DNA of 64,000 nt, taken from the sequence record OR885871; one strand, given 5' to 3'. A program made the translations under genes and the position numbers. This stretch comes from Escherichia phage vB_EcoM_JN03. The notes beneath the pieces are model-generated. The model was not told where the DNA came from, made no database searches, and saw only the letters and a program-made list of their open reading frames with translations. Of this stretch, positions 3,544-60,893 are shown piece by piece (within the stretch, counting starts at the first letter, position 1; each line of letters opens with the position of its first letter).

Positions 3544-3572
3544 ATACTCCATAATATTGGGGGAAATTAGTG

Positions 3573-5072
3573 ATGTCTGAGATCCAAATAGTCAAAGTGA
3601 ACGAAGTTAGAATGCGGATCCTTGCCGAGGATTATATCCGTGAAGAACTCAACGATTACTTCAAATTTGAAGATCCTAATTTCCAACCGAATCCGTTCAG
3701 TAAATGGGACGGCGTAGTGCGGTTGTTCACAAAGAGTTCTGGGCTTATCGACATCGGCCTGTTATTTGAGGTGTTCAAATTCTGTAAGATGAACGGTTAC
3801 ACCATCAAATTAGATCCGGCCTTAAAATATATTCAAGATATTCCGGATGAAGAAATTCATGCGTTCATCGATACATTGAATGCGGTGTACCGAGACGAAA
3901 ACAAACAATATCAAAAAGCGATTGTCCGCGATTATCAATTTGATTCTGTTGCCACAGCAATACGCCAAAGCAGATGTGTCCTCGAAGCTGCCACGAGTGC
4001 TGGCAAATCCTTTATTTTGTACATCATGGCGCGTTACTACAGGCAACGCAGAGATGCCCTCGAAAGTAATCTGAGGACGTTAATCGTTGTACCATCCATT
4101 CATTTGGTGACTCAGTTGTATGACAACTTCGAAGAATATAGCCACGGGACAGAATGGAAACCATTGATGAATGTCCAGACAATATACGAAGGGGCAACGA
4201 AAGAGATTTTCAAACCCATAGTTATTTCAACTTGGCAAGGTATCCAGAACCAACCCAAAGAGTGGTTCCATCAATTTGGAGATATCGTCGTCGACGAAGT
4301 ACATACATCAAAATCAGATAAATTGTCTTACATCTTGAATAACTGTATTAACGCTGATCAACGTTTGGGAGTAACCGGAACCCTGGCGAATACAAAGGTC
4401 GCAGGGTTACAAGTCGTTGCTCACTTTGGCGCATATCATAAAATTATTACAGCGCGCGATTTAATCGATCTAGGATTTGCGGCGGACATCAATGTTAATA
4501 TGATTGAAGTCATACATCCTATGGCAGACTGTATTGAAATGCACGGTGCTGAGTATCAAAAGGAAATAGAATTCCTCATTGCTAACGAACGCCGCAATGA
4601 ATTGATAGCTCGAATGGCTCTATCTTTGAAAGGGAACGTCGCAGTAATGTTCGAACGTATCGATGCACACATGATGTTGGTTTATGAAATGCTATCGGCA
4701 GTCAAGAAAAACGTATTCGTCATCAACGGGGAAGTCAAGACAGAAGTTCGTAAACAGATTCAGGCTGCTATGGAAGAAGGGGAAGATATAACACTGTTAG
4801 CATCATATGGCACTATGCAACAGGGCGTATCTATCAAAAAACTCCATCATCTGATTTTGGCCCATCCCAGCAAATCTTATATCCGTGTTATACAGACATT
4901 GGGGCGTTTGATGCGTCAGCATTCCTCTAAGGATGTTGCGCGAATCTGGGACCTGGTAGACAACCTGCGCTACAACGGTTCTTACAACCATGCTCTCAGG
5001 CATTCTCATGAGAGATATAAATTTTATCTTATGGAGCGCCACCCTGTTAAAATGAAAAAAGTGGCGCTCTAA
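3573..5072 (+). CDS. uvsW: UvsW-like SF2 DNA helicase
   Basis: Walker A ATSAGKS, DEVH-type box VVDEVHT, C-terminal HPSKSYIRVIQTLGRLMR; blocks recalled from T4 UvsW (VISTWQGIQNQPKEW, ARIWDLVDN) are present. Confidence 0.85.
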   Translation: MSEIQIVKVNEVRMRILAEDYIREELNDYFKFEDPNFQPNPFSKWDGVVRLFTKSSGLIDIGLLFEVFKFCKMNGYTIKLDPALKYIQDIPDEEIHAFIDTLNAVYRDENKQYQKAIVRDYQFDSVATAIRQSRCVLEAATSAGKSFILYIMARYYRQRRDALESNLRTLIVVPSIHLVTQLYDNFEEYSHGTEWKPLMNVQTIYEGATKEIFKPIVISTWQGIQNQPKEWFHQFGDIVVDEVHTSKSDKLSYILNNCINADQRLGVTGTLANTKVAGLQVVAHFGAYHKIITARDLIDLGFAADINVNMIEVIHPMADCIEMHGAEYQKEIEFLIANERRNELIARMALSLKGNVAVMFERIDAHMMLVYEMLSAVKKNVFVINGEVKTEVRKQIQAAMEEGEDITLLASYGTMQQGVSIKKLHHLILAHPSKSYIRVIQTLGRLMRQHSSKDVARIWDLVDNLRYNGSYNHALRHSHERYKFYLMERHPVKMKKVAL

Positions 5073-10612: not shown

Positions 10613-10727
10613 AGATTCCCTTTACTTCATTCTTCAATAACTCTTTTCAACGTATTATTGACCTCACTTAAACGAAGCGCCCTGGCAAACGGGGCGCACA
10701 TTTGAACTGAAACAGGAAGACTATACC

Positions 10728-12746
10728 ATGGCAGAATTCAAACCCTTCGCAACGGCAGTTAATAACAACGTGCTGGCGATGTCCGCAACTGGTCTGTTCA
10801 TGACCAATATCGATAAAGATGCTCTTTGGGATCTGTATCTGGAATCTTTCCCTGCTGGTACCAACCCGCTCTACCGTGAGCGTACCGAGCACGACTGTAC
10901 CTGCTGTAAACAATTCATCCGTAACATCGGCGGTGTGGTCACCATCGACTCCGACCTGAACGTGATTTCCATCTGGGACAACATTGATCTGGGTAATGAA
11001 TATGACGTGGTGGCTGCGGCGCTGTCGGCGTATGTCAAACAACACGCAATCGTCGATGTTTATTTTAACGATTCTGCCAAAGTCGGCCTGTCTCACAATC
11101 ACGAATCTGGTGAAGATGGCAAAATCCGTACTTATAATCATTTCCATACCCAATTACTTGGTAGCTATGTTCTGCGTCCGGACGCAATCGCTTCGAAAAA
11201 AGGTGAAATCCGCCAGGCTATTGAATTGTTTGAACGCGGTCTGCGTGAAATTACTCTGGAATCAGCTGAAATCGTTCTGGAACTGATTGACCAGAATTCT
11301 CTGTATCGCGGCGCAGAACACAAAGCAGCAGTGAAGGGATTTGTTGAAACCAAAAAGGCATATGAACAAGTCCCCGAATCAGCCCGTTCTCTTTGGGCAT
11401 GGCATACTGGATACCGTTCAAACAATCATGTTCCACACGGCATCCGTAACACAGTTATCGGCACTCTGCTGACAGATATCAGCGAAGGCGTGGAACTGGA
11501 AAAGGCTGTTAAATCGTTTGAATCCAAAGTTGCTCCGGCGAACTACAAACGTCCGACAGCGCTGGTTTCAAAATCCATGATCGAAAACGCTCAGAAAGAA
11601 GTTATTGCTCTGGGTTTGGAAGACTCACTGGCGCGTCGTTATGCGGTTTATGATGATCTGACAATCAACAACGTTCTGTTCGCAGATCTGGCTGCTCAGA
11701 AAGCGATGGATCCGTTTGCACAGCTGGCCGCCGAAGTGAAAACTCCGACCAAGTCCCTGGAAAAAGTTGAAGAGATCAGCGTTGATGATTTCCTGAGCAA
11801 TGTTCTGCCAAAAGCGCATTCAATGGAAGTGCTTGTAGAGAATTCTCATACTAGCAACCTGATGTCCCTGGTTGCTCCGGCGAACCCAGATGCGCCTAAC
11901 TTGTTCAAGTGGAACAACGGTTTCTCCTGGTCTTACAATGGTGAAGTGGCCGATTCCATTAAAGAACGTGTAAAGGCTGCTGGCGGTAAAGTTGACGGGT
12001 ATCTGCGCGTTTCCTTGGCGTGGCACAATAACGACGACCTCGATCTGCATATGTTCAACAACATGGAGCACGTTTACTTCCGCGATCGCCGCTCTATGAC
12101 AGGTGCCCATCTGGATATCGATATGAACGGTATGGATGGTATTGATCCAAACCGCGCTCCGGTGGAAAATATCATCTTTACAGATGAAAGCAAGCTGCGC
12201 GATGGTGAATACCGTTTCGAAATCCACAACTACAATCAACGTGAAAAAATCGACGAAGGGTTTGAAGTAGAAGTAGAATACAAAGGCGCAACGCATCGTT
12301 TCAGCCATCCTGGCCTGAAAGATCAGGGGCGTATCACTGCAGTCATCCTGACTGTTAAAGACAAACAAGTTGTTGGCATTAAGTCCGAACTGGCTAATGT
12401 TGATAAGTCTAAAGAAGTTTGGGGTATCAAGACTGCGACCTTCCAGAAAGTACAGCTGGTCCTGAACTCACCAAACCATTGGGATGGCGAGCAGACAGGC
12501 AACAAGCACGTGTTCTTCATCCTGGAAGGTTGTGCTAATCCTGAAGGTACTCGTGGTTTCTACAACGAATATCTGAAGCCAGAACTGGATAAACATCGTA
12601 AGGTTTTTGAAATGTTGGGTAGTAAAATGAAAGTCCAGCCGAATGAAAACCAACTGTCCGGTCTGGGATTCTCGACGACGCAACGCAACCACGTGTTCGT
12701 CAAAGTGTCCGGCGCGTTTAACCGTACTGTAAAAGTCATTTTCTAA
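10728..12746 (+). CDS. large hypothetical protein, 672 aa, codon-optimised
   Basis: AGGAAG RBS; strongly host-optimal codons; Cys cluster HDCTCCKQF; acidic segments WHNNDDLDLH and HLDIDMNGMDGID; no Walker motifs. Confidence 0.7.
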   Translation: MAEFKPFATAVNNNVLAMSATGLFMTNIDKDALWDLYLESFPAGTNPLYRERTEHDCTCCKQFIRNIGGVVTIDSDLNVISIWDNIDLGNEYDVVAAALSAYVKQHAIVDVYFNDSAKVGLSHNHESGEDGKIRTYNHFHTQLLGSYVLRPDAIASKKGEIRQAIELFERGLREITLESAEIVLELIDQNSLYRGAEHKAAVKGFVETKKAYEQVPESARSLWAWHTGYRSNNHVPHGIRNTVIGTLLTDISEGVELEKAVKSFESKVAPANYKRPTALVSKSMIENAQKEVIALGLEDSLARRYAVYDDLTINNVLFADLAAQKAMDPFAQLAAEVKTPTKSLEKVEEISVDDFLSNVLPKAHSMEVLVENSHTSNLMSLVAPANPDAPNLFKWNNGFSWSYNGEVADSIKERVKAAGGKVDGYLRVSLAWHNNDDLDLHMFNNMEHVYFRDRRSMTGAHLDIDMNGMDGIDPNRAPVENIIFTDESKLRDGEYRFEIHNYNQREKIDEGFEVEVEYKGATHRFSHPGLKDQGRITAVILTVKDKQVVGIKSELANVDKSKEVWGIKTATFQKVQLVLNSPNHWDGEQTGNKHVFFILEGCANPEGTRGFYNEYLKPELDKHRKVFEMLGSKMKVQPNENQLSGLGFSTTQRNHVFVKVSGAFNRTVKVIF

Positions 12747-19314: not shown

Positions 19315-19764
19315 ATGTTCCTTACATCCTTTATTGACTGGATGAATATCATAAATGGTCTGAGGATCCCTGTTGGGAACCTCGGGCTTTCTCGTTCTTC
19401 TATGCCGCAAATCGATGCCGACAAACAAGAAGATTTTCACAAATATCTTGAAGACAACGGCGTGTCCATAGATGCTGCGCAAGTACCCATCAAAATGCTT
19501 CGTCTTACCCAGAACGAAATCAATAAAATGAAGGTCTGGAAGATTATGAAGCAGATCAGAAATAAGAAGCCCATGGGTCGAGTTTGGGTGTCTTCTGACA
19601 ATTACGTTGTTGACGGGTCTCACCGATTTGTCGCTGCGTTGAACATGGACGGCAAACAGCGCATGAAGGTCTACAAAGTTGATTTGCCAGCGATGGAATT
19701 TGTTAAACTCGCTAAACAGTTTCAGGGTGTGCGATACAGAACGGTCAGCGATACCCGTTTCTGA
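19315..19764 (+). CDS. ParB/Srx-fold (ParB-like nuclease domain) protein
   Basis: LRLTQNEINKM...VVDGSHRFVAA resembles the ParB N-terminal DGxHR motif. Confidence 0.5.
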   Translation: MFLTSFIDWMNIINGLRIPVGNLGLSRSSMPQIDADKQEDFHKYLEDNGVSIDAAQVPIKMLRLTQNEINKMKVWKIMKQIRNKKPMGRVWVSSDNYVVDGSHRFVAALNMDGKQRMKVYKVDLPAMEFVKLAKQFQGVRYRTVSDTRF

Positions 19765-21691: not shown

Positions 21692-21704
21692 TTCAATAAC
21701 ATTA

Positions 21705-21735
21705 GGGCGGTTATTATTAAACCGCCTTTTATTTG
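21705..21735 (+). terminator. rho-independent terminator
   Basis: GGCGGT-loop-ACCGCC hairpin followed by TTTTATTTG. Confidence 0.55.
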
Positions 21736-23222: not shown

Positions 23223-24013
23223 TGTTCAAGAAACTGGTATTTGGCGCAATTATGGTCCTAGCAGCAAGCATTCTTTCGGGCTGCGGCGGTGTTATCGATG
23301 AAGGAAACGTCGGTGTTCGAACCCAATGGGGTGAAGTGGACATGAACCCTGTAACCGCAGGTATCTACACCAGTTTCGTTTCAAGTGTAGATGTCTATAC
23401 GACTAAAGAAGCCGTCGTGAGTCTGACGAAAATGACGCCAAAGGCCAAAGACAACCTGACCTTGGAAGATCTGGATGTGGATGTTTATTACACACCGAAC
23501 GTCGCAAAGGTTCCGTGGTTCCATACCAAATTTGCAGGTCAGAGCGCTGAACTCGGTGACGGCACGATAGCGGTGGGATTCAACCTGGTTAAAACCGCCG
23601 CAGCATCCTCAACGATGGACGCCGTTTCCTCTTTGGATTCTATGACAATTCACACCCAACGGGCTGAGTTAGAAAAGATGATCAAGGAACGCACCCAGCA
23701 GCAATTGGAAACTGCTGCGCCTGGCATGTTCACAATCACACGTGTGTTGGTGAAAAAGGCGCTGACAGATCCTTCGATTGAGCAATCTATCCGTGATAAT
23801 GTCATGGCCGACAAACGTTTGGATACAGCAAGAAAGAACGTTGAAATTCGCGACCAAGAAGCCAGGGCGAATCAGAAACTGACGACATCTCTGACACCTG
23901 AATATTTACAACACGAATATAACATGGTGTTGCAATCTTGCGCCAACAGCGGGAAATGTACTCTGATTGTTGATGGTTCTGGCTCAAGTAAAATGCTAAA
24001 CGTCGGCAAATAA
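23222..24013 (+). CDS. SPFH/Band-7 (stomatin/prohibitin-like) lipoprotein
   Basis: Signal peptide with lipobox LSGCGG, then GNVGVRTQWGEV and a coiled region typical of the SPFH family. Confidence 0.6.
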   Translation: MFKKLVFGAIMVLAASILSGCGGVIDEGNVGVRTQWGEVDMNPVTAGIYTSFVSSVDVYTTKEAVVSLTKMTPKAKDNLTLEDLDVDVYYTPNVAKVPWFHTKFAGQSAELGDGTIAVGFNLVKTAAASSTMDAVSSLDSMTIHTQRAELEKMIKERTQQQLETAAPGMFTITRVLVKKALTDPSIEQSIRDNVMADKRLDTARKNVEIRDQEARANQKLTTSLTPEYLQHEYNMVLQSCANSGKCTLIVDGSGSSKMLNVGK

Positions 24014-24096
24014 ACGCTTTATTCAATAGTATTTGTTAGGTAAGCTGTAGTCCTCTTGTAGTGAAACATCGTAAACAACCAACTGGAGTAATCCGA

Positions 24097-24375
24097 ATGA
24101 ACCGTACTGATTTTATCGCCCACATCGCCCAAACCCAGGGTATGACCAAAGGCGAAGCAGAGAAGATCGTGGCATCCTTTATCAACGGCGTGAAAACTGC
24201 AGTCGCAGCTGGCCAATCTGTCCAATTCGTAGGCTTCGGCGCGTTCGAAGTTAAACATCAGGAAGCGCGCACTGGCCGCAACCCGCTGAACGGACAACAG
24301 ATCCAGATCGAAGCGAAAAATGTAGTTAAATTCAAAGTCGGTGAAGGTCTGAAAGCTGCTGCCAACGGCCAGTAA
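24097..24375 (+). CDS. HU/IHF-family DNA-binding protein
   Basis: MNRTDFIAHIAQ...FVGFGAFEVKHQEARTGRNPLNGQQIQIEAKNVVKFKVGEGLK matches the HU fold including the GRNP arm motif; GGAG RBS. Confidence 0.8.
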   Translation: MNRTDFIAHIAQTQGMTKGEAEKIVASFINGVKTAVAAGQSVQFVGFGAFEVKHQEARTGRNPLNGQQIQIEAKNVVKFKVGEGLKAAANGQ

Positions 24376-24424
24376 TCACATCCAGAGCGGTCGCGCCTAG
24401 CACAGCGTGTTAGGCTAAAAGAGA

Positions 24425-24453
24425 AAGCCGAGGTTAATGCCTCGGCTTTTTCG
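24425..24453 (+). terminator. rho-independent terminator
   Basis: AAGCCGAGG-ttaatg-CCTCGGCTT hairpin followed by TTTTCG. Confidence 0.6.
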
Positions 24454-24500
24454 TTGTTGGGATTCGGGTAAACTATAACAGAATCCAAAGGAGGAACAAC

Positions 24501-26222
24501 GTGACAGCATTTAATCAACACCGAAAGGCGATTGACGCCATAGGCCGTAAGGTTCCTATGGAAGAAATACAACGCCTTGCCAAAGATGAATTCCCATATG
24601 ACAAAGCGAACCCAGGCCAGATGGAATGCATCGTCGAAGCCATAGATGCGCTTATCAACAAAAAGGTTAAACATGTCATCATTGAAGCTCCGACAGGCGT
24701 CGGTAAATCTTTGATTGGCACTACCATTCATAAAGTGATTCGTCATCTGGTTTTACAGGCTGATCCTTATGGGCAATTTCGCACTTCTATCAGCACCCCG
24801 ACCAAAGGTCTGCAAGATCAGTATGCTGCTGAAAAAGCAGTATCGATCGATATCCTGAAAGGCAAGAAGAATTATCGTTGCCACGTACATCCAGATGTGT
24901 ATTACAATGCTGTCCAATGCCGTATAGCATGCCGTGACGGGCATTGTAGCAAACGCCGCTGTCCTTATGTACAGGCGCGTAATTTGTGGACGGATATTTC
25001 ATCATTGCGTTGTACTAATGCTGCCATGATGATCGAAATGTGTACAACAATCTGCATGAAGCCCGAAAACCGTTCCGATATGCTGATCCTTGACGAGTGC
25101 CATAAAATGCCCTCTACGCTCCTAGAGCACACGATCATGGAATACAATACAAAGGCCGTGGAGGGGCTGCGTTCTATCCCTGAGGGCAAGGAGATCGTCT
25201 CTACCATTGGTGATATCGTAGAACGCACCAAGGACTATGTCCTGGGCAAGTTATATTCTTTGTCTGGTGAACTACATTCAATGTTTGAAGACCTCCATCT
25301 CAAAGTAGAAAATTTGTTGGAAGTCCTTGAAGAATTGGTCGAAGATGATCGCTTGAGTGAAAGCCAAGTGATGAAACTCGCAGACATTATAGATGTCTTG
25401 CATAACTTGAGTGATTATTGCGGTATTATGTCACAAACCCAAGCAAGTACATTTATTGTGCAAGAAAAGGGGGAAGATTTTATCCGGTTTAAACCTGTTA
25501 TGCCTTCTGATGTAAGTGAATTCGGGTTATTCCGAAAAGCCGATTATCACGTTCATATGTCAGCAACGATCTGTGGTATAGATTCTTATGCTCGTTCATT
25601 GGGTATTCGACAGGGGGATTATCATTCCATTCAGATCGGCAACCCTATCCCAATTGAAAACAGAAAAGTCAACTATATGCCCATAGTGAAGATGACTAAC
25701 AATATGGGCGACTATGAAATGAAAAGGTTGACGGAATATATTGATGAAATAATCGCGTTCCACCCAGGTCAGTCCGGCATTATCCATACAGTGAGTTATG
25801 ATCGCGCCTTGGCAATACAAAAATTTAGTAAATATCAGAATTTTATCCATGTTCCGCGCACCCGAAAGGCGTTGATGGATATTATGGAAAATGCTTTTAG
25901 AACAAAGTCCCCATGTGTCATTGCCAGTCCGGCTATGGAAGAAGGTTATGATTTCAAAGGGGATTACAGCCGTTTCCAAATACTGATCAAAGTCCCTTAT
26001 GATTATCTGGGTGATCCACTGATAGCACATATCAATTCAGTGGATCCGTCGGCATACTTCCGCAACGCAGTACTGCGCATTGTTCAAATGTGTGGGCGTT
26101 CGGTCAGGGGTGTTGATGACTGGGCTGCGACATACATCATTGATTCATCCTTTGAATCTCTTATGATGCGCAACCCAGAATTCTTCCCAACCTGGTTCAC
26201 CGATGCAGTGTTTGAGGTTTAA
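24501..26222 (+). CDS. DinG/XPD-like SF2 helicase with Fe-S cluster cysteines
   Basis: GTG start with AAAGGAGG RBS; Walker A APTGVGKS, DECH box LILDECH, and four cysteines between them (CHVH...CRIACRDGHCSKRRCPY) typical of Rad3/XPD/DinG. Confidence 0.7.
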   Translation: MTAFNQHRKAIDAIGRKVPMEEIQRLAKDEFPYDKANPGQMECIVEAIDALINKKVKHVIIEAPTGVGKSLIGTTIHKVIRHLVLQADPYGQFRTSISTPTKGLQDQYAAEKAVSIDILKGKKNYRCHVHPDVYYNAVQCRIACRDGHCSKRRCPYVQARNLWTDISSLRCTNAAMMIEMCTTICMKPENRSDMLILDECHKMPSTLLEHTIMEYNTKAVEGLRSIPEGKEIVSTIGDIVERTKDYVLGKLYSLSGELHSMFEDLHLKVENLLEVLEELVEDDRLSESQVMKLADIIDVLHNLSDYCGIMSQTQASTFIVQEKGEDFIRFKPVMPSDVSEFGLFRKADYHVHMSATICGIDSYARSLGIRQGDYHSIQIGNPIPIENRKVNYMPIVKMTNNMGDYEMKRLTEYIDEIIAFHPGQSGIIHTVSYDRALAIQKFSKYQNFIHVPRTRKALMDIMENAFRTKSPCVIASPAMEEGYDFKGDYSRFQILIKVPYDYLGDPLIAHINSVDPSAYFRNAVLRIVQMCGRSVRGVDDWAATYIIDSSFESLMMRNPEFFPTWFTDAVFEV

Positions 26223-26986
26223 TAACCCGCAATAAACGATAAATGGCACTTGATATTTGGTTCAAGTGTCGTTATCGTGATAATCATATTGTCCACATCT
26301 TGGCTGAAAGATATATTTGCGATCGGTTTGGTTTGAACATGATTATACAGGCTATAAATCAGATCTTCACCACGATAACCGATTTTGCCATCAGTGTCCT
26401 GCCAATGACCGAGGGTAGACTCTCGAGCGTGTACTCGGAATTCGACCATATGAAACAATGCTTTTGGGATGGTCTTCAGTATGCTGGTCCCAACAACCGG
26501 AATATCAATAGAAGAGTCGTTGGAGTTTCCTTCATAAACAGATTCCCAACCAAATATTGGATCACCTCCTGCCACAGGAGTTCTTTTCCAGTATTGGAAT
26601 TCTGGGTTGCCCGAAGCGTTCTTTTGTAGGAGGATTACTTCACCGCCTTCAAAATTGGAAGTGTCTATATCGTCCCTTGCTAATAAATCTGCCGGAGAAC
26701 CAATAAATTTCCAAGTTTCGCGATCTAAAATAGACTTATAATAATCGGTGAATACGTTGCTGTCGTTAGCTGCATTGATTGCGTCTTTAAGACCTTCACC
26801 TGTGACCATCTCATTAAGTTTTAGCCACATGTTTTTGACAGCTGACGCAGCTGCGACTTGACCTTCAGTCCCACCCGCCGTGTAGTCATAAATGATGTCC
26901 AGCTTTTGTATGGAATCATTTATAGACAAGAGCAAACGCTCAATTTCTGGGGCGGTCAGACTGAAACGATATGCGCGTTCTGACAT
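26219..26986 (-). CDS. hypothetical protein, 255 aa
   Basis: Minus-strand ORF with GAGGAA RBS; convergent with the DinG-like gene; TATAAGTA near-late-promoter upstream. Confidence 0.55.
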   Translation of the reverse strand: MSERAYRFSLTAPEIERLLLSINDSIQKLDIIYDYTAGGTEGQVAAASAVKNMWLKLNEMVTGEGLKDAINAANDSNVFTDYYKSILDRETWKFIGSPADLLARDDIDTSNFEGGEVILLQKNASGNPEFQYWKRTPVAGGDPIFGWESVYEGNSNDSSIDIPVVGTSILKTIPKALFHMVEFRVHARESTLGHWQDTDGKIGYRGEDLIYSLYNHVQTKPIANISFSQDVDNMIITITTLEPNIKCHLSFIAGY

Positions 26987-59175: not shown

Positions 59176-59190
59176 TTATTGGAGCATGTC

Positions 59191-59853
59191 ATGTCTTATT
59201 CGCTCAAAGGGCTGTTGAAGCGCCCTGTGCATTTGTTTGTCAAACCACCTGCTGTAGAAGGGGAATATTCGGCACGAGGAGAGTTGTATTACATTAAAGG
59301 CTCCAATGGTAGTGGTAAGTCTACTGTGCCTTCTTATTTGGCGGAGAATGATCCTCAGGCGTATGTCGTAACCCATAACAGTAAGATCATGCTCACGGTT
59401 TGTCCATCTTACAATATTGTCTGTGTCGGTAAATATGACAAGTCTAAGTCCAAAGGGGTTGATTCTCTGAAGGATACTGAGCAGATGTTGTTCGCGTTGT
59501 CTATTGCTGACCAACCAGAATACCTGAAATATGATGTGATTTTTGAAGGCATCATTCCGTCTACATTATTGAGTTCTTGGATTCCCCGCCTGACACGCCC
59601 ACCACGTGAATTGGTCGTCCTCTTTATGGATACCCCTCTTGAAACCTGTATTGCCCGTGTTAAATCGCGTAACGGTGGCGCAGACTTCAATGAAAGTCTG
59701 GTGGTCGAGAAGTGGGAGAGAGTTCATGATCACCGTCAACGGCATAAAGGCTTGTTCCCTACCGTTCCCGCAGGTATGATGAAGTCCGATGGCCTGACTG
59801 TAGAGCAGGCTGTTTTTGCGTTTCTCAATCGTGATTTTGGGAGTATTGATTGA
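59191..59853 (+). CDS. P-loop kinase (candidate nucleotide or DNA-base kinase)
   Basis: Classical Walker A GSNGSGKST near the N-terminus; about 220 aa; first gene of the nucleotide-metabolism block. Confidence 0.6.
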   Translation: MSYSLKGLLKRPVHLFVKPPAVEGEYSARGELYYIKGSNGSGKSTVPSYLAENDPQAYVVTHNSKIMLTVCPSYNIVCVGKYDKSKSKGVDSLKDTEQMLFALSIADQPEYLKYDVIFEGIIPSTLLSSWIPRLTRPPRELVVLFMDTPLETCIARVKSRNGGADFNESLVVEKWERVHDHRQRHKGLFPTVPAGMMKSDGLTVEQAVFAFLNRDFGSID

Positions 59854-60893
59854 TGGAAATTTTTGCTCTAAATAATAATGACATGCTTAAGAAAGCTGTG
59901 TTGGCTATCCGTGAACACGGGATTGAGTCAGATCCTGGCAACGCAGAGATTAACACTGACGGCACTCGTTTTATTGATGGCGTGACGATTACGGTGGCTG
60001 ACCCTCGAGATCGTTGGTTATCTGTTGAAGGTCGTAATTCATCTGCGCTTGCTGCGATTGGTGAAACATTCTGGGTTCTGTCAGGCCGCAATGACATCCG
60101 TTTCCTTTCCCGAGTCCTCCCTCGTGCGGTCAACTTCTCGGATGATGGCGTAACGTGGCGTGGTGCTTACGGACCACGTCTGTACAACTATGGCCAGCTG
60201 GATAGTGTCATCAACCGTTTGCGCAATAACCCCAACACCCGTCAGGCGTATCTCACCATCTATGATCCAGCTCTGGACTCAGATGAAAGTTTGGCCGCGC
60301 ATAGTGAAACAGGAGAAGCCAAGACTAAAGACATGATCTGTAATCTGGCTTTATTGTTCAGTATAACAGAAGGGCGGTTGAACATCACGGTCATCAATCG
60401 AAGTCAGGATGTCCTCTGGGGTATGAGTTCAATCAACTTCATTGAATTCTCCATTTTGCAGGAAGTATTGGCGAAGGTGCTGAACGTGGAAGTCGGGAAT
60501 TATAAACTGTTCTCGAATAACCTTCACTATTATAACAACGAAGTCAGTCGGAAGCAACTCGGGAACATAACCAACAAGACCCGAACTTCTATTGGTATGT
60601 ACAATTCTTTGTTGGAATTCTCTTCGGAAAAGGTGAAATGTCAAGAAAACATCCAAAATCTGTTCCTCGGTGTACTTCATCGCTGTGACATTGGCAGTGA
60701 ATTTGGTAAAATCAGAGAGCATTTGAAGGAATATAACGCAGATACAGGTTTGATGATGGATATGTCATATTGTCTGTGGTGTCGCCTTAATGATACTAAA
60801 ATTGATAAACGTCGGATTGCTGATGATGGTCTTCGTAATGCGTTGTTGCAATCACCCGTTGACCGTAAACACATGTGGGGGTATGGGGAATGA
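59853..60893 (+). CDS. thymidylate-synthase-family pyrimidine hydroxymethylase (dUMP/dCMP hydroxymethylase-like)
   Basis: NPNTRQAYLTIYDP...C...RSQDVLWGM parallels T4 gp42 NPDSRRGIMIYTRP...C...RSNDVVFGF; an Asn lies near the base-specificity position (tentative). Confidence 0.7.
   Translation: MEIFALNNNDMLKKAVLAIREHGIESDPGNAEINTDGTRFIDGVTITVADPRDRWLSVEGRNSSALAAIGETFWVLSGRNDIRFLSRVLPRAVNFSDDGVTWRGAYGPRLYNYGQLDSVINRLRNNPNTRQAYLTIYDPALDSDESLAAHSETGEAKTKDMICNLALLFSITEGRLNITVINRSQDVLWGMSSINFIEFSILQEVLAKVLNVEVGNYKLFSNNLHYYNNEVSRKQLGNITNKTRTSIGMYNSLLEFSSEKVKCQENIQNLFLGVLHRCDIGSEFGKIREHLKEYNADTGLMMDMSYCLWCRLNDTKIDKRRIADDGLRNALLQSPVDRKHMWGYGE

Follow-up and report, generated by a model that had tools for sequence, protein, structure and literature searches.

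An HU-family protein gene beside a compact XPD/DinG-type helicase gene in the Kuttervirus phage vB_EcoM_JN03

The bacterial HU proteins, such as HupA/HupB of E. coli and HBsu of Bacillus, have a phage-encoded homologue in TF1 of Bacillus phage SPO1, a type II DNA-binding protein with a preference for hmU-DNA, and the iron-sulphur (Fe-S) helicases of the XPD/DinG superfamily include DinG and YoaA of E. coli and XPD of the archaea. In phage T4, UvsW is the R-loop helicase and Dda is a 5'-3' helicase of superfamily 1B (SF1B). Neither an HU gene nor a DinG-like helicase gene is known as part of the T4 set. One gene of each kind lies at positions 24097-26222 of a 64,000-nucleotide (nt) stretch of Escherichia phage vB_EcoM_JN03 (sequence record OR885871); this whole stretch is called the window below, and positions are counted in it. 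With a probability of about 0.6 for the reading as a whole, the two are read here as independent conserved early/middle genes, coding for an abundant architectural HU protein and for an accessory helicase comparable to Dda.

The window belongs to a Kuttervirus genome (Ackermannviridae) with 98-99% identity to Salmonella phages SM5, SenASZ3 and moki. A megablast search with 23900-26400 matched 263 phage records, 255 of them with at least 80% query coverage, and the top matches were Salmonella phages SM5 (99.0%), SeKF_19 and SenASZ3; the moki record gives the taxonomy of the region as Ackermannviridae, Cvivirinae, Kuttervirus. The initial annotation had placed the pair correctly, with exact coordinates from the HU ATG at 24097 to the helicase stop codon at 26222, and both of its family assignments hold, the HU/IHF fold for the first product and a Rad3/XPD/DinG-type Fe-S helicase for the second. 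Hundreds of GenBank records already hold both genes under a name, some of them titling the HU gene 'transcription factor 1'. Proteogenomics of Vi01-like phages lists a 'putative ATP-dependent helicase' and a 'putative DNA binding protein' among the conserved genes (PMC10892097). A 2024 review of Ackermannviridae does not mention any helicase or DNA-binding protein, and a 2025 review of DinG-like proteins treats bacterial subgroups only, with phages figuring merely as defence targets. The two proteins are uncharacterised members of well-known families, already annotated as such. The present analysis adds codon-bias evidence for very high HU expression, shows that the terminator and the promoter-like element of HU are conserved, that the synteny is restricted to one lineage and that the Fe-S module is compact, and finds no Dda.

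The HU gene and its signals are the following:

24018 to 24052, plus strand: promoter-like element 5' of HU, TTTATTCAATA-N12-TAAGCT, recognised by conservation, its function inferred
24085 to 24088, plus strand: ribosome-binding site (RBS) GGAG of the HU gene, seen in the sequence 8 nt 5' of the ATG and conserved in the alignment
24097 to 24375, plus strand: HU-family DNA-binding protein, 92 amino acids (aa), supported by Pfam, PDB chains, AlphaFold2 (AF2)/Foldseek and codon use
24424 to 24451, plus strand: intrinsic terminator 3' of HU, stem AAAGCCGAGG/CCTCGGCTTT followed by a T run, supported by fold and covariation

The Pfam family Bac_DNA_binding (PF00216) matched the HU protein with 103.4 bits against a cut-off of 22.4 (E 7.7e-30, residues 1-90 of 90 profile positions), and PHROG 379 matched it with E 3.9e-37. 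Sequence matches in the PDB were led by Bacillus HU (1.3e-19), followed by E. coli HU-alpha (1.5e-15) and TF1 (3.9e-11). The AF2 model, built with 35 sequences, has a pLDDT of 95.9, with helices at residues 3-14 and 18-37, strands within 42-81 and a beta-arm. Foldseek aligned the model with HU/IHF structures at TM 0.8-0.89, and with HU-DNA and IHF-DNA structures at 0.87-0.89. In the 35-sequence alignment F47, G48, F50, R58, G60, N62 and P63 are invariant, and the arm tip R58-G60-R61-N62-P63 is intact in the phage protein. The top Foldseek match of the model was chain B of the integrative ACP-DBH1 model (9a4h); an acyl carrier protein gene is also present in this phage, annotated in moki about 6 kb 5' of HU (locus L001, 5891-6202).

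The phage protein resembles bacterial HU in fold and in length (92 aa in the phage, 90-92 aa in bacteria). Both have the G46-F47-G48-x-F50 core, the R58-x-G60-R61-N62-P63 arm tip and an isoelectric point (pI) of about 9.8. Its identity is about 40% with each of E. coli HU-alpha, HU-beta and HBsu; TF1 follows with 37%, a value that agrees with tblastn on the SPO1 genome, and the IHF subunits reach about 30%. Unlike bacterial HU, the phage protein carries Q55 for R55 and V77 for P77, belongs to a lineage-specific clade of its own, and is encoded by a lytic-phage gene with its own promoter-like element and terminator. The NCBIfam equivalog models did not reach their cut-offs with it (IHF-alpha 76 bits against 111; HU-alpha and HU-beta 67 bits against 162 and 157). 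By its sequence, it belongs to the family, but no host subunit is its orthologue. CBA120 orf125 and many further Kuttervirus gene products match it with 100% identity. Members of this phage clade are 58-100% identical to each other, and everything else falls below 48%, a drop which marks HU as an old resident of the phage lineage and not a fresh host copy. Recent capture of the host genes hupA or hupB is ruled out by the 40% identity together with the distinct phage clade. In moki (129459-129968; locus L008, 26460-26969, outside the window) another gene, coding for 169 aa, bears the annotation 'histone family DNA-binding / putative histone-like protein'. The HU-like protein may hence not be the sole nucleoid-type protein of this phage type.

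Several signals suggest that the HU gene would form a short transcription unit with a promoter-like element, an RBS and an intrinsic terminator of its own. That it has its own RBS and terminator had been proposed in the initial annotation, and it was confirmed for both, by GGAG at 24085-24088 and by covariation in the hairpin at 24424-24451. The 125-nt spacer between HU and helicase folds with z = -5.6 relative to shuffled sequence. The hairpin is the second in the spacer and closes with T5; a pattern scan reported it solely in complementary-strand form. In an alignment of 11 phages, Serratia and Erwinia relatives included, the stem occurs in variant forms (GCCGAGG, GCCGGGG, GCCGGAG, CCCCGC, CCCCGG) in which the bases still pair, 4 pairs having changed on both sides. 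Because the stem has been kept through compensatory changes, the HU terminator is considered a real intrinsic terminator.

On the 5' side of HU, 8 phages share an almost unchanged block of about 45 nt (GCTTTATTCAATA-N12-TAAGCTGTAG...), even where the upstream gene is a different one. The motif TCAATA-N11-13-TAnnnT was found 6 times in the window against 2.07 expected, a number attained by 1 of 100 shuffles. Four of the six matches (10634-10658, 21693-21717, 24023-24046 and 54018-54040, plus strand) lie 56-95 nt 5' of plus-strand genes, which start at 10728, 21749, 24097 (HU) and 54113 (gp32); one of the four genes is a 672-aa open reading frame (ORF) with high codon bias. The motif is a modest candidate for a phage promoter class. 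Its geometry resembles that of T4 middle promoters (MotA box plus -10), and the box itself differs. The consensus scan found no sigma-70 or T4-late promoter near either gene. Two other motifs were rejected: TTTATT-N17-TAAGCT as a promoter class, found at the HU gene only, and TATAAATA as a promoter for either gene, of which the window has just 3 copies, none near HU or the helicase.

For codon use, each of 75 non-overlapping ORFs of the window was scored by its fraction of optimal codons of the E. coli type. HU ranks first of the 75 with 0.744 (mean 0.49, sd 0.08), ahead of the sliding clamp (rank 2), gp32 (rank 5) and the 672-aa protein; the helicase, with 0.464, ranks 51st. The GC content of the HU gene is 51.3% versus 44.7%, in the top 5.5% among windows of equal size. 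With a protein identity of 40%, this codon bias was not inherited from a donor and so points to selection for very high expression; HU is probably very highly expressed, as would suit an architectural protein needed in stoichiometric amounts. Both HU and the helicase are missing from mass spectrometry of CsCl-purified virions of Kuttervirus Sajous1, which picked up a protein with a ParB N-terminal domain (11 spectra) as well as the SPFH lipoprotein (3 spectra) (PMC10892097). A role of HU as a virion DNA-condensing protein, missing as it is from this proteome, is unsupported. Taken together, the HU product has the canonical HU fold and is presumably a dimer, with beta-arms bearing the intercalating proline. 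It would be made in large amounts and act as a non-specific, DNA-bending architectural protein; as its likely substrate, phage DNA inside the cell, at the stage of replication, recombination or late transcription, is preferred over DNA in the virion.

The helicase gene has the following features:

24488 to 24494, plus strand: RBS AAGGAGG of the helicase gene, seen in the sequence, its GGAG invariant in the alignment
24501 to 26222, plus strand: XPD/DinG-type superfamily 2 (SF2) helicase, 573 aa, GTG start, supported by sequence and fold matches
24687 to 24710, plus strand: Walker A APTGVGKS, residues 63-70, with G66, G68 and K69 invariant (66 + 118 homologues)
24879 to 24962, plus strand: four-cysteine module C127-x12-C140-x8-C149-x4-C154, putative 4Fe-4S site, recognised by conservation
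25092 to 25103, plus strand: motif II DECH, residues 198-201, with D198, E199 and H201 invariant and C200 in 86% of homologues
25113 to 25535, plus strand: arch-like helical insertion, residues about 205-345, taken from the model, its boundaries inferred

The helicase is 100% identical to the 'DNA helicase' of SenASZ3 and matches phrog_2488 with E 1.7e-265; its GTG start is invariant in 11/11 aligned phages. In Pfam, Helicase_C_2 (PF13307) matched with 46 bits against a cut-off of 25.3, and ResIII and DEAD matched as well. DEAD_2 (PF06733) found no match in the helicase and matched 1 of the 120 homologues listed. A single-sequence search of the PDB placed DinG on top (E 1.2e-4), and a 66-sequence profile gave Finegoldia DinG (2.9e-20) and E. 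coli DinG (1.2e-17), followed by archaeal XPD, Rad3/XPD, FANCJ and CHL1. The AF2 model has a pLDDT of 91.3 and a pTM of 0.90. Foldseek matched it with DinG 6fwr (E 1.4e-25), XPD (4e-24) and CasDinG at TM up to 0.68; chains of DinG, XPD or CasDinG take all of the top 38 places among the PDB fold matches, an Hna monomer is at rank 39, and RecQ-family chains appear from rank 45. Motifs Q, I, II, III and VI are all present. The invariant motor residues are F31, Q40, G66, G68, K69, D198, E199, H201, T356, Q529, G532, R533 and R536, and S354 and A355 are conserved in at least 90%. In the model, about 140 residues between DECH and the HMSAT strand form the arch-like insertion, in which residues 256-280 and 287-312 are long helices.

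The initial annotation had counted four cysteines between Walker A and the DECH box. The count is wrong, as there are eight, and the quartet as such stands. C127, C140, C149 and C154 are each present in 118/118 homologues, down to 31% identity, whereas the other four vary (C144 in 35 of the 118, C171 in 34, C181 in 67 and C185 in 57). The quartet, whose absence had been named as a refutation, thus survives a careful alignment, and its presence in every homologue makes it a family-wide feature and no chance pattern. C149 and C154 (C-x4-CPY) line up with C199 and C205 (C-x5-CPF), which are cluster ligands in DinG. In the pairwise alignment the variable C144 lies opposite DinG C194; since C144 is variable, the second ligand of this family is most likely C140, and not the residue that aligns with C194. 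The module is compact, spanning 28 residues compared with 86 in DinG (C120 to C205). Relatives in Nitrososphaeria, Nitrosopumilales and Methanobrevibacter, at 24-30% identity, have four cysteines too, with insertions of up to about 60 residues. Judged from this conservation, the four-cysteine module most likely binds a 4Fe-4S cluster. Among cellular organisms, the closest relatives of the helicase are encoded on the chromosomes of ammonia-oxidising Thaumarchaeota and of Methanobrevibacter instead of Enterobacteria, and no close homologue turned up in enterobacterial genomes.

Among described enzymes, E. coli DinG/YoaA and archaeal XPD are closest to the phage helicase in sequence and fold. They have in common HD1 with the four-cysteine insertion, the arch-like insertion, HD2 with Helicase_C_2 and the CPY/CPF motif of the last ligand. 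The phage helicase differs from them in its identity of 14-16%, in lacking the N-terminal extension and in having no match to Pfam DEAD_2. It scores far below the NCBIfam equivalog cut-offs of DinG (57.7 bits against 598) and YoaA (54.3 against 680). The strongest non-PHROG profile match is PADLOC PDLC01439, the type IV-A CRISPR-associated DinG (169 bits, E 3.7e-50, residues 24-553, 575-position model), far above the match to canonical DinG, suggesting a close relationship between one CasDinG-like group and the phage helicase family. The solved CasDinG structures are 11% identical to the phage helicase and have a vestigial Fe-S domain (PMC10450177), whereas the phage protein keeps its four cysteines. 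No cas or csf gene and no array is annotated near the helicase, and an Rfam scan of the window found no RNA family. An identity as type IV CasDinG was rejected, the neighbours being HU, a structural gene, RNase H, gp55 and gp46/47, not a cas operon.

The comparison with T4 concerns role and not descent, as T4 Dda and the phage helicase are unrelated in superfamily and fold. The window encodes a clear UvsW orthologue at 3570-5072 (E 1.6e-75 to T4 UvsW, 2oca). As helicases, the annotation of the moki genome lists only a UvsW-like protein, a gp41-like protein and this one; it also has a gp59-like protein, and nothing named Dda; T4 Dda used as a tblastn query against the complete moki genome gave only noise (best E 0.47). 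Apart from Dda, the replication set of the phage is T4-like, with gp41, gp59-like, UvsW, UvsX, gp32 and gp46/47. A Dda-like role is proposed because UvsW and gp41 are kept, Dda is absent and the helicase stands among replication and recombination genes in many lineages; the equivalence is drawn from that absence and from gene context. The protein belongs to the SF2B helicases of the XPD/DinG superfamily; its motor motifs are complete, and it carries an arch-like insertion and an unusually compact four-cysteine module. By analogy to the family, it would move 5'-3' on single-stranded DNA, and it would serve as a monomeric 5'-3' accessory helicase of replication and recombination, as Dda does in T4.

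Synteny was examined in 78 viral loci with helicase relatives, each with 10-kb flanks, which represent 25 helicase lineages. HU lies directly 5' of the helicase, with a gap of 128-151 nt, in 22/22 loci with a helicase identity of at least 62%, all of enterobacterial Ackermannviridae, and within 10 kb of the helicase in none of the 56 remaining, more distant loci. Adjacent HU is also missing at three extra loci, a Vibrio phage 1.244.A record and two metagenomic contigs. A conserved functional pair of HU and helicase was rejected on these grounds, as the adjacency occurs in one lineage only and a conserved terminator stands between the genes. The adjacency is synteny particular to one lineage and gives no reason to take the two as functionally paired; nothing indicates joint action.

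In moki the order of genes is SPFH lipoprotein, 'DNA-binding protein HU-beta', 'ATP-dependent helicase' and a structural gene on the opposite strand, followed by RNase H, a late sigma factor (gp55-like) and a gp47/gp46-like recombination nuclease. In distant relatives the helicase adjoins a gene for a protein of about 150 aa, of which the window has an orthologue at 19315-19764 on the plus strand (44-48% identity). This gene codes for a 149-aa protein which carries a ParB/Sulfiredoxin (Srx)-domain name in UniRef and a conserved LDGSHRF motif and has no Pfam match. The ParB/Srx-like gene lies beside or close to the helicase gene in the Vibrio and metagenomic relatives, and it recurs in 7/25 lineages. 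By gene order, its product in the window is probably the 'ParB N-terminal domain' protein of the Sajous1 virion, and it is a possible partner of the helicase. In Kuttervirus about 4.7 kb separate the ParB-like gene from the helicase, a block that contains spanins, small ORFs, a superinfection-exclusion-like gene (phrog_1510), the SPFH lipoprotein gene, present in just 10/22 loci, and HU. Since HU lies in this block beside the helicase, it stands at the edge of a lineage-specific insertion.

Other genes recur near the helicase in more than one lineage. The clamp loader was found near it in 7/25 lineages and gp47 in 5/25, and a 777-aa ORF at the position of moki's gp46-like recombination endonuclease subunit in 6/25 (36 loci). 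Three more recurrent families, in 6, 6 and 4 lineages, are gp41-like, sliding clamp and UvsX-like as judged by N-terminal sequences alone. The replication and recombination module and the ParB/Srx-like gene are the older neighbours of the helicase.

Between the HU terminator and the helicase RBS lies the TTGGGATTCGGGTAAACTATA block (24453-24500, plus strand), which is conserved across genera and can fold into a small hairpin ending beside GGAG. It could be a promoter, a 5' untranslated region structure or a RegB-type processing site, as the phage has a RegB-like nuclease. The conserved GGGTAAACTATA block 5' of the helicase was considered as a repeated promoter motif and has no second copy in the window. 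At the other end, the helicase gene and a convergent 255-aa structural-protein gene (26219-26986, minus strand) overlap in their stop codons (TTAA, 26219-26222), and no terminator was found between them. Two minus-strand ORFs antisense to the helicase (24258-24746 and 25596-26030) were dismissed as shadow ORFs, conserved only through the conservation of the helicase.

The initial annotation had also linked both proteins to modified DNA. Its premise is borne out, as the window encodes a 5-hydroxymethyl-deoxyuridine (5-hmdU) DNA kinase at 59179-59853 (PF18748, E 2.6e-113). In 59179-60893 (plus strand) the kinase gene is directly followed by a divergent thymidylate-synthase-like gene and then by a dUTPase-like gene, and these constitute the thymidine-hypermodification pathway of ViI-type phages. 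Such phages carry 5-(2-aminoethoxy)methyl-deoxyuridine (5-NeOmdU) in their DNA (PMC5889632, PMC8989533). Several GenBank and RefSeq records mislabel the 5-hmdU DNA kinase as 'terminase small subunit'. On the side of HU, an analogy to TF1 would mean that the protein evolved a preference for its own hypermodified DNA, of the 5-NeOmdU/5-hmdU type, and selectively marks or organises phage DNA. The parallel with SPO1 is that both phages encode an HU homologue, that thymine is replaced or modified via 5-hmdU in both, and that both proteins are probably abundant; the probable high expression of HU fits the abundance of TF1. That the phage encodes a hypermodification pathway (PMC5889632), that the HU clade is specific to the phage lineage with no recent host copy, and that some GenBank records use the 'transcription factor 1' label also favour such a preference. 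HU arms bind in the minor groove and the modification lies in the major groove, so binding to modified DNA is plausible. The analogy nevertheless has no specific sequence basis. TF1, at 37%, is no closer than the other HU proteins at 40%; it has F61 and a C-terminal extension of 7-9 residues, whereas the protein encoded here carries R61 and stops, tailless, at residue 92. An adaptation of charge to cationic DNA was rejected too, since the net charge of +4 and the pI of 9.8 equal those of E. coli HU.

The distribution of the genes speaks against the TF1-like preference as well. The 5-hmdU DNA kinase records include 45 Vibrio, 54 Pseudomonas and 9 Bordetella phages, and the 525 HU-positive records include 94 of Ralstonia, 48 of SPbeta/SPO1-type Bacillus and 13 of Burkholderia phages, with Vibrio and Pseudomonas each below 8. 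The kinase-bearing Vibrio Ackermannviridae-like and Pseudomonas M6-type phages are thus mostly without HU, HU is common in Ralstonia, Burkholderia and SPbeta-type phages that are missing from the kinase list, and no HU was found within 20 kb of the PhiW-14 helicase. With kinase groups mostly lacking HU and many HU phages absent from the kinase list, HU does not track thymidine hypermodification. A preference of this kind is speculation to which comparative genomics lends no support, and we regard it as rather unlikely. Distinctly improbable is a wider proposal, in which HU is an abundant phage 'chromatin' protein tuned to 5-NeOmdU, as the Gram-negative equivalent of TF1, and the helicase takes the place of Dda and acts on modified DNA ends together with gp46/47 and the ParB/Srx-like protein of the virion; HU would then tell phage from host DNA during replication and late transcription. 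The helicase could instead serve thymidine hypermodification or the processing of modified DNA, opening the duplex for the kinase and transferases, or remove R-loops as DinG does. E. coli DinG unwinds R-loops (PMC2770101), but the R-loop role suggested in the initial annotation is weakened by the UvsW orthologue of the phage. For hypermodification, a weak hint comes from linkage in PhiW-14, where the orthologue gp70 (38%) lies two genes from the kinase gp72 (HMUDK_hel, E 5.8e-26; locus L011, 19986-22967), in a 106-162-kb metagenomic phage with HMUD2, ADDT and HMUDK_hel 3-6 kb away (locus L005, 6001-13674), and in a further metagenomic phage with a kinase gene within 10 kb (locus L062). However, these are only 3 of the 56 distant loci, the kinase is 33 kb away in the window, and members of the helicase family are present in Rhizobium, halovirus, Lak and Tenacibaculum phages too, all missing from the kinase list; the family was found in phage XacN1 as well. 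We consider this role of the helicase quite improbable. Very unlikely, finally, is HU as a host-directed or counter-defence 'moron' that competes with host HU/IHF or shields incoming DNA. Its place in the variable 4.7-kb block, beside spanins, the superinfection-exclusion-like gene and an SPFH gene that most of the 22 loci lack, would suit such a gene, and so would its faster divergence in Serratia and Erwinia relatives (48% identity for HU versus 62-66% for the helicase). Yet HU keeps the same position in all 22 loci, PADLOC gave no match, and the gene shares its codon bias with core replication proteins and its kind of promoter-like element with gp32.

The reading as an abundant architectural protein and a Dda-like accessory helicase has to be weighed against several points. 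Codon bias is an indirect proxy of expression, and the GC content of HU could partly reflect an Ala/Gly-rich composition. Virion mass spectrometry can overlook small proteins such as HU. The absence of Dda is based on tblastn and annotation, by which a very divergent SF1B helicase could be missed. As the helicase scores far below the DinG and YoaA cut-offs and has no DEAD_2 match, the substrate and polarity of DinG are not simply transferable to it. In the literature searched, no functional work on either protein in Ackermannviridae was found.

Kuttervirus phages are widely used candidates for biocontrol and therapy, and their replication biology has been inferred almost wholly from T4. Should HU turn out to favour hypermodified DNA, it would be only the second example, TF1 being the first, and would show how amine-decorated DNA is read by a protein. 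If the helicase fills the place of Dda, a T4-like replisome would offer a clear case of non-homologous replacement, and this stand-in of only 573 aa would also offer a small, compact XPD-type enzyme for mechanistic study.

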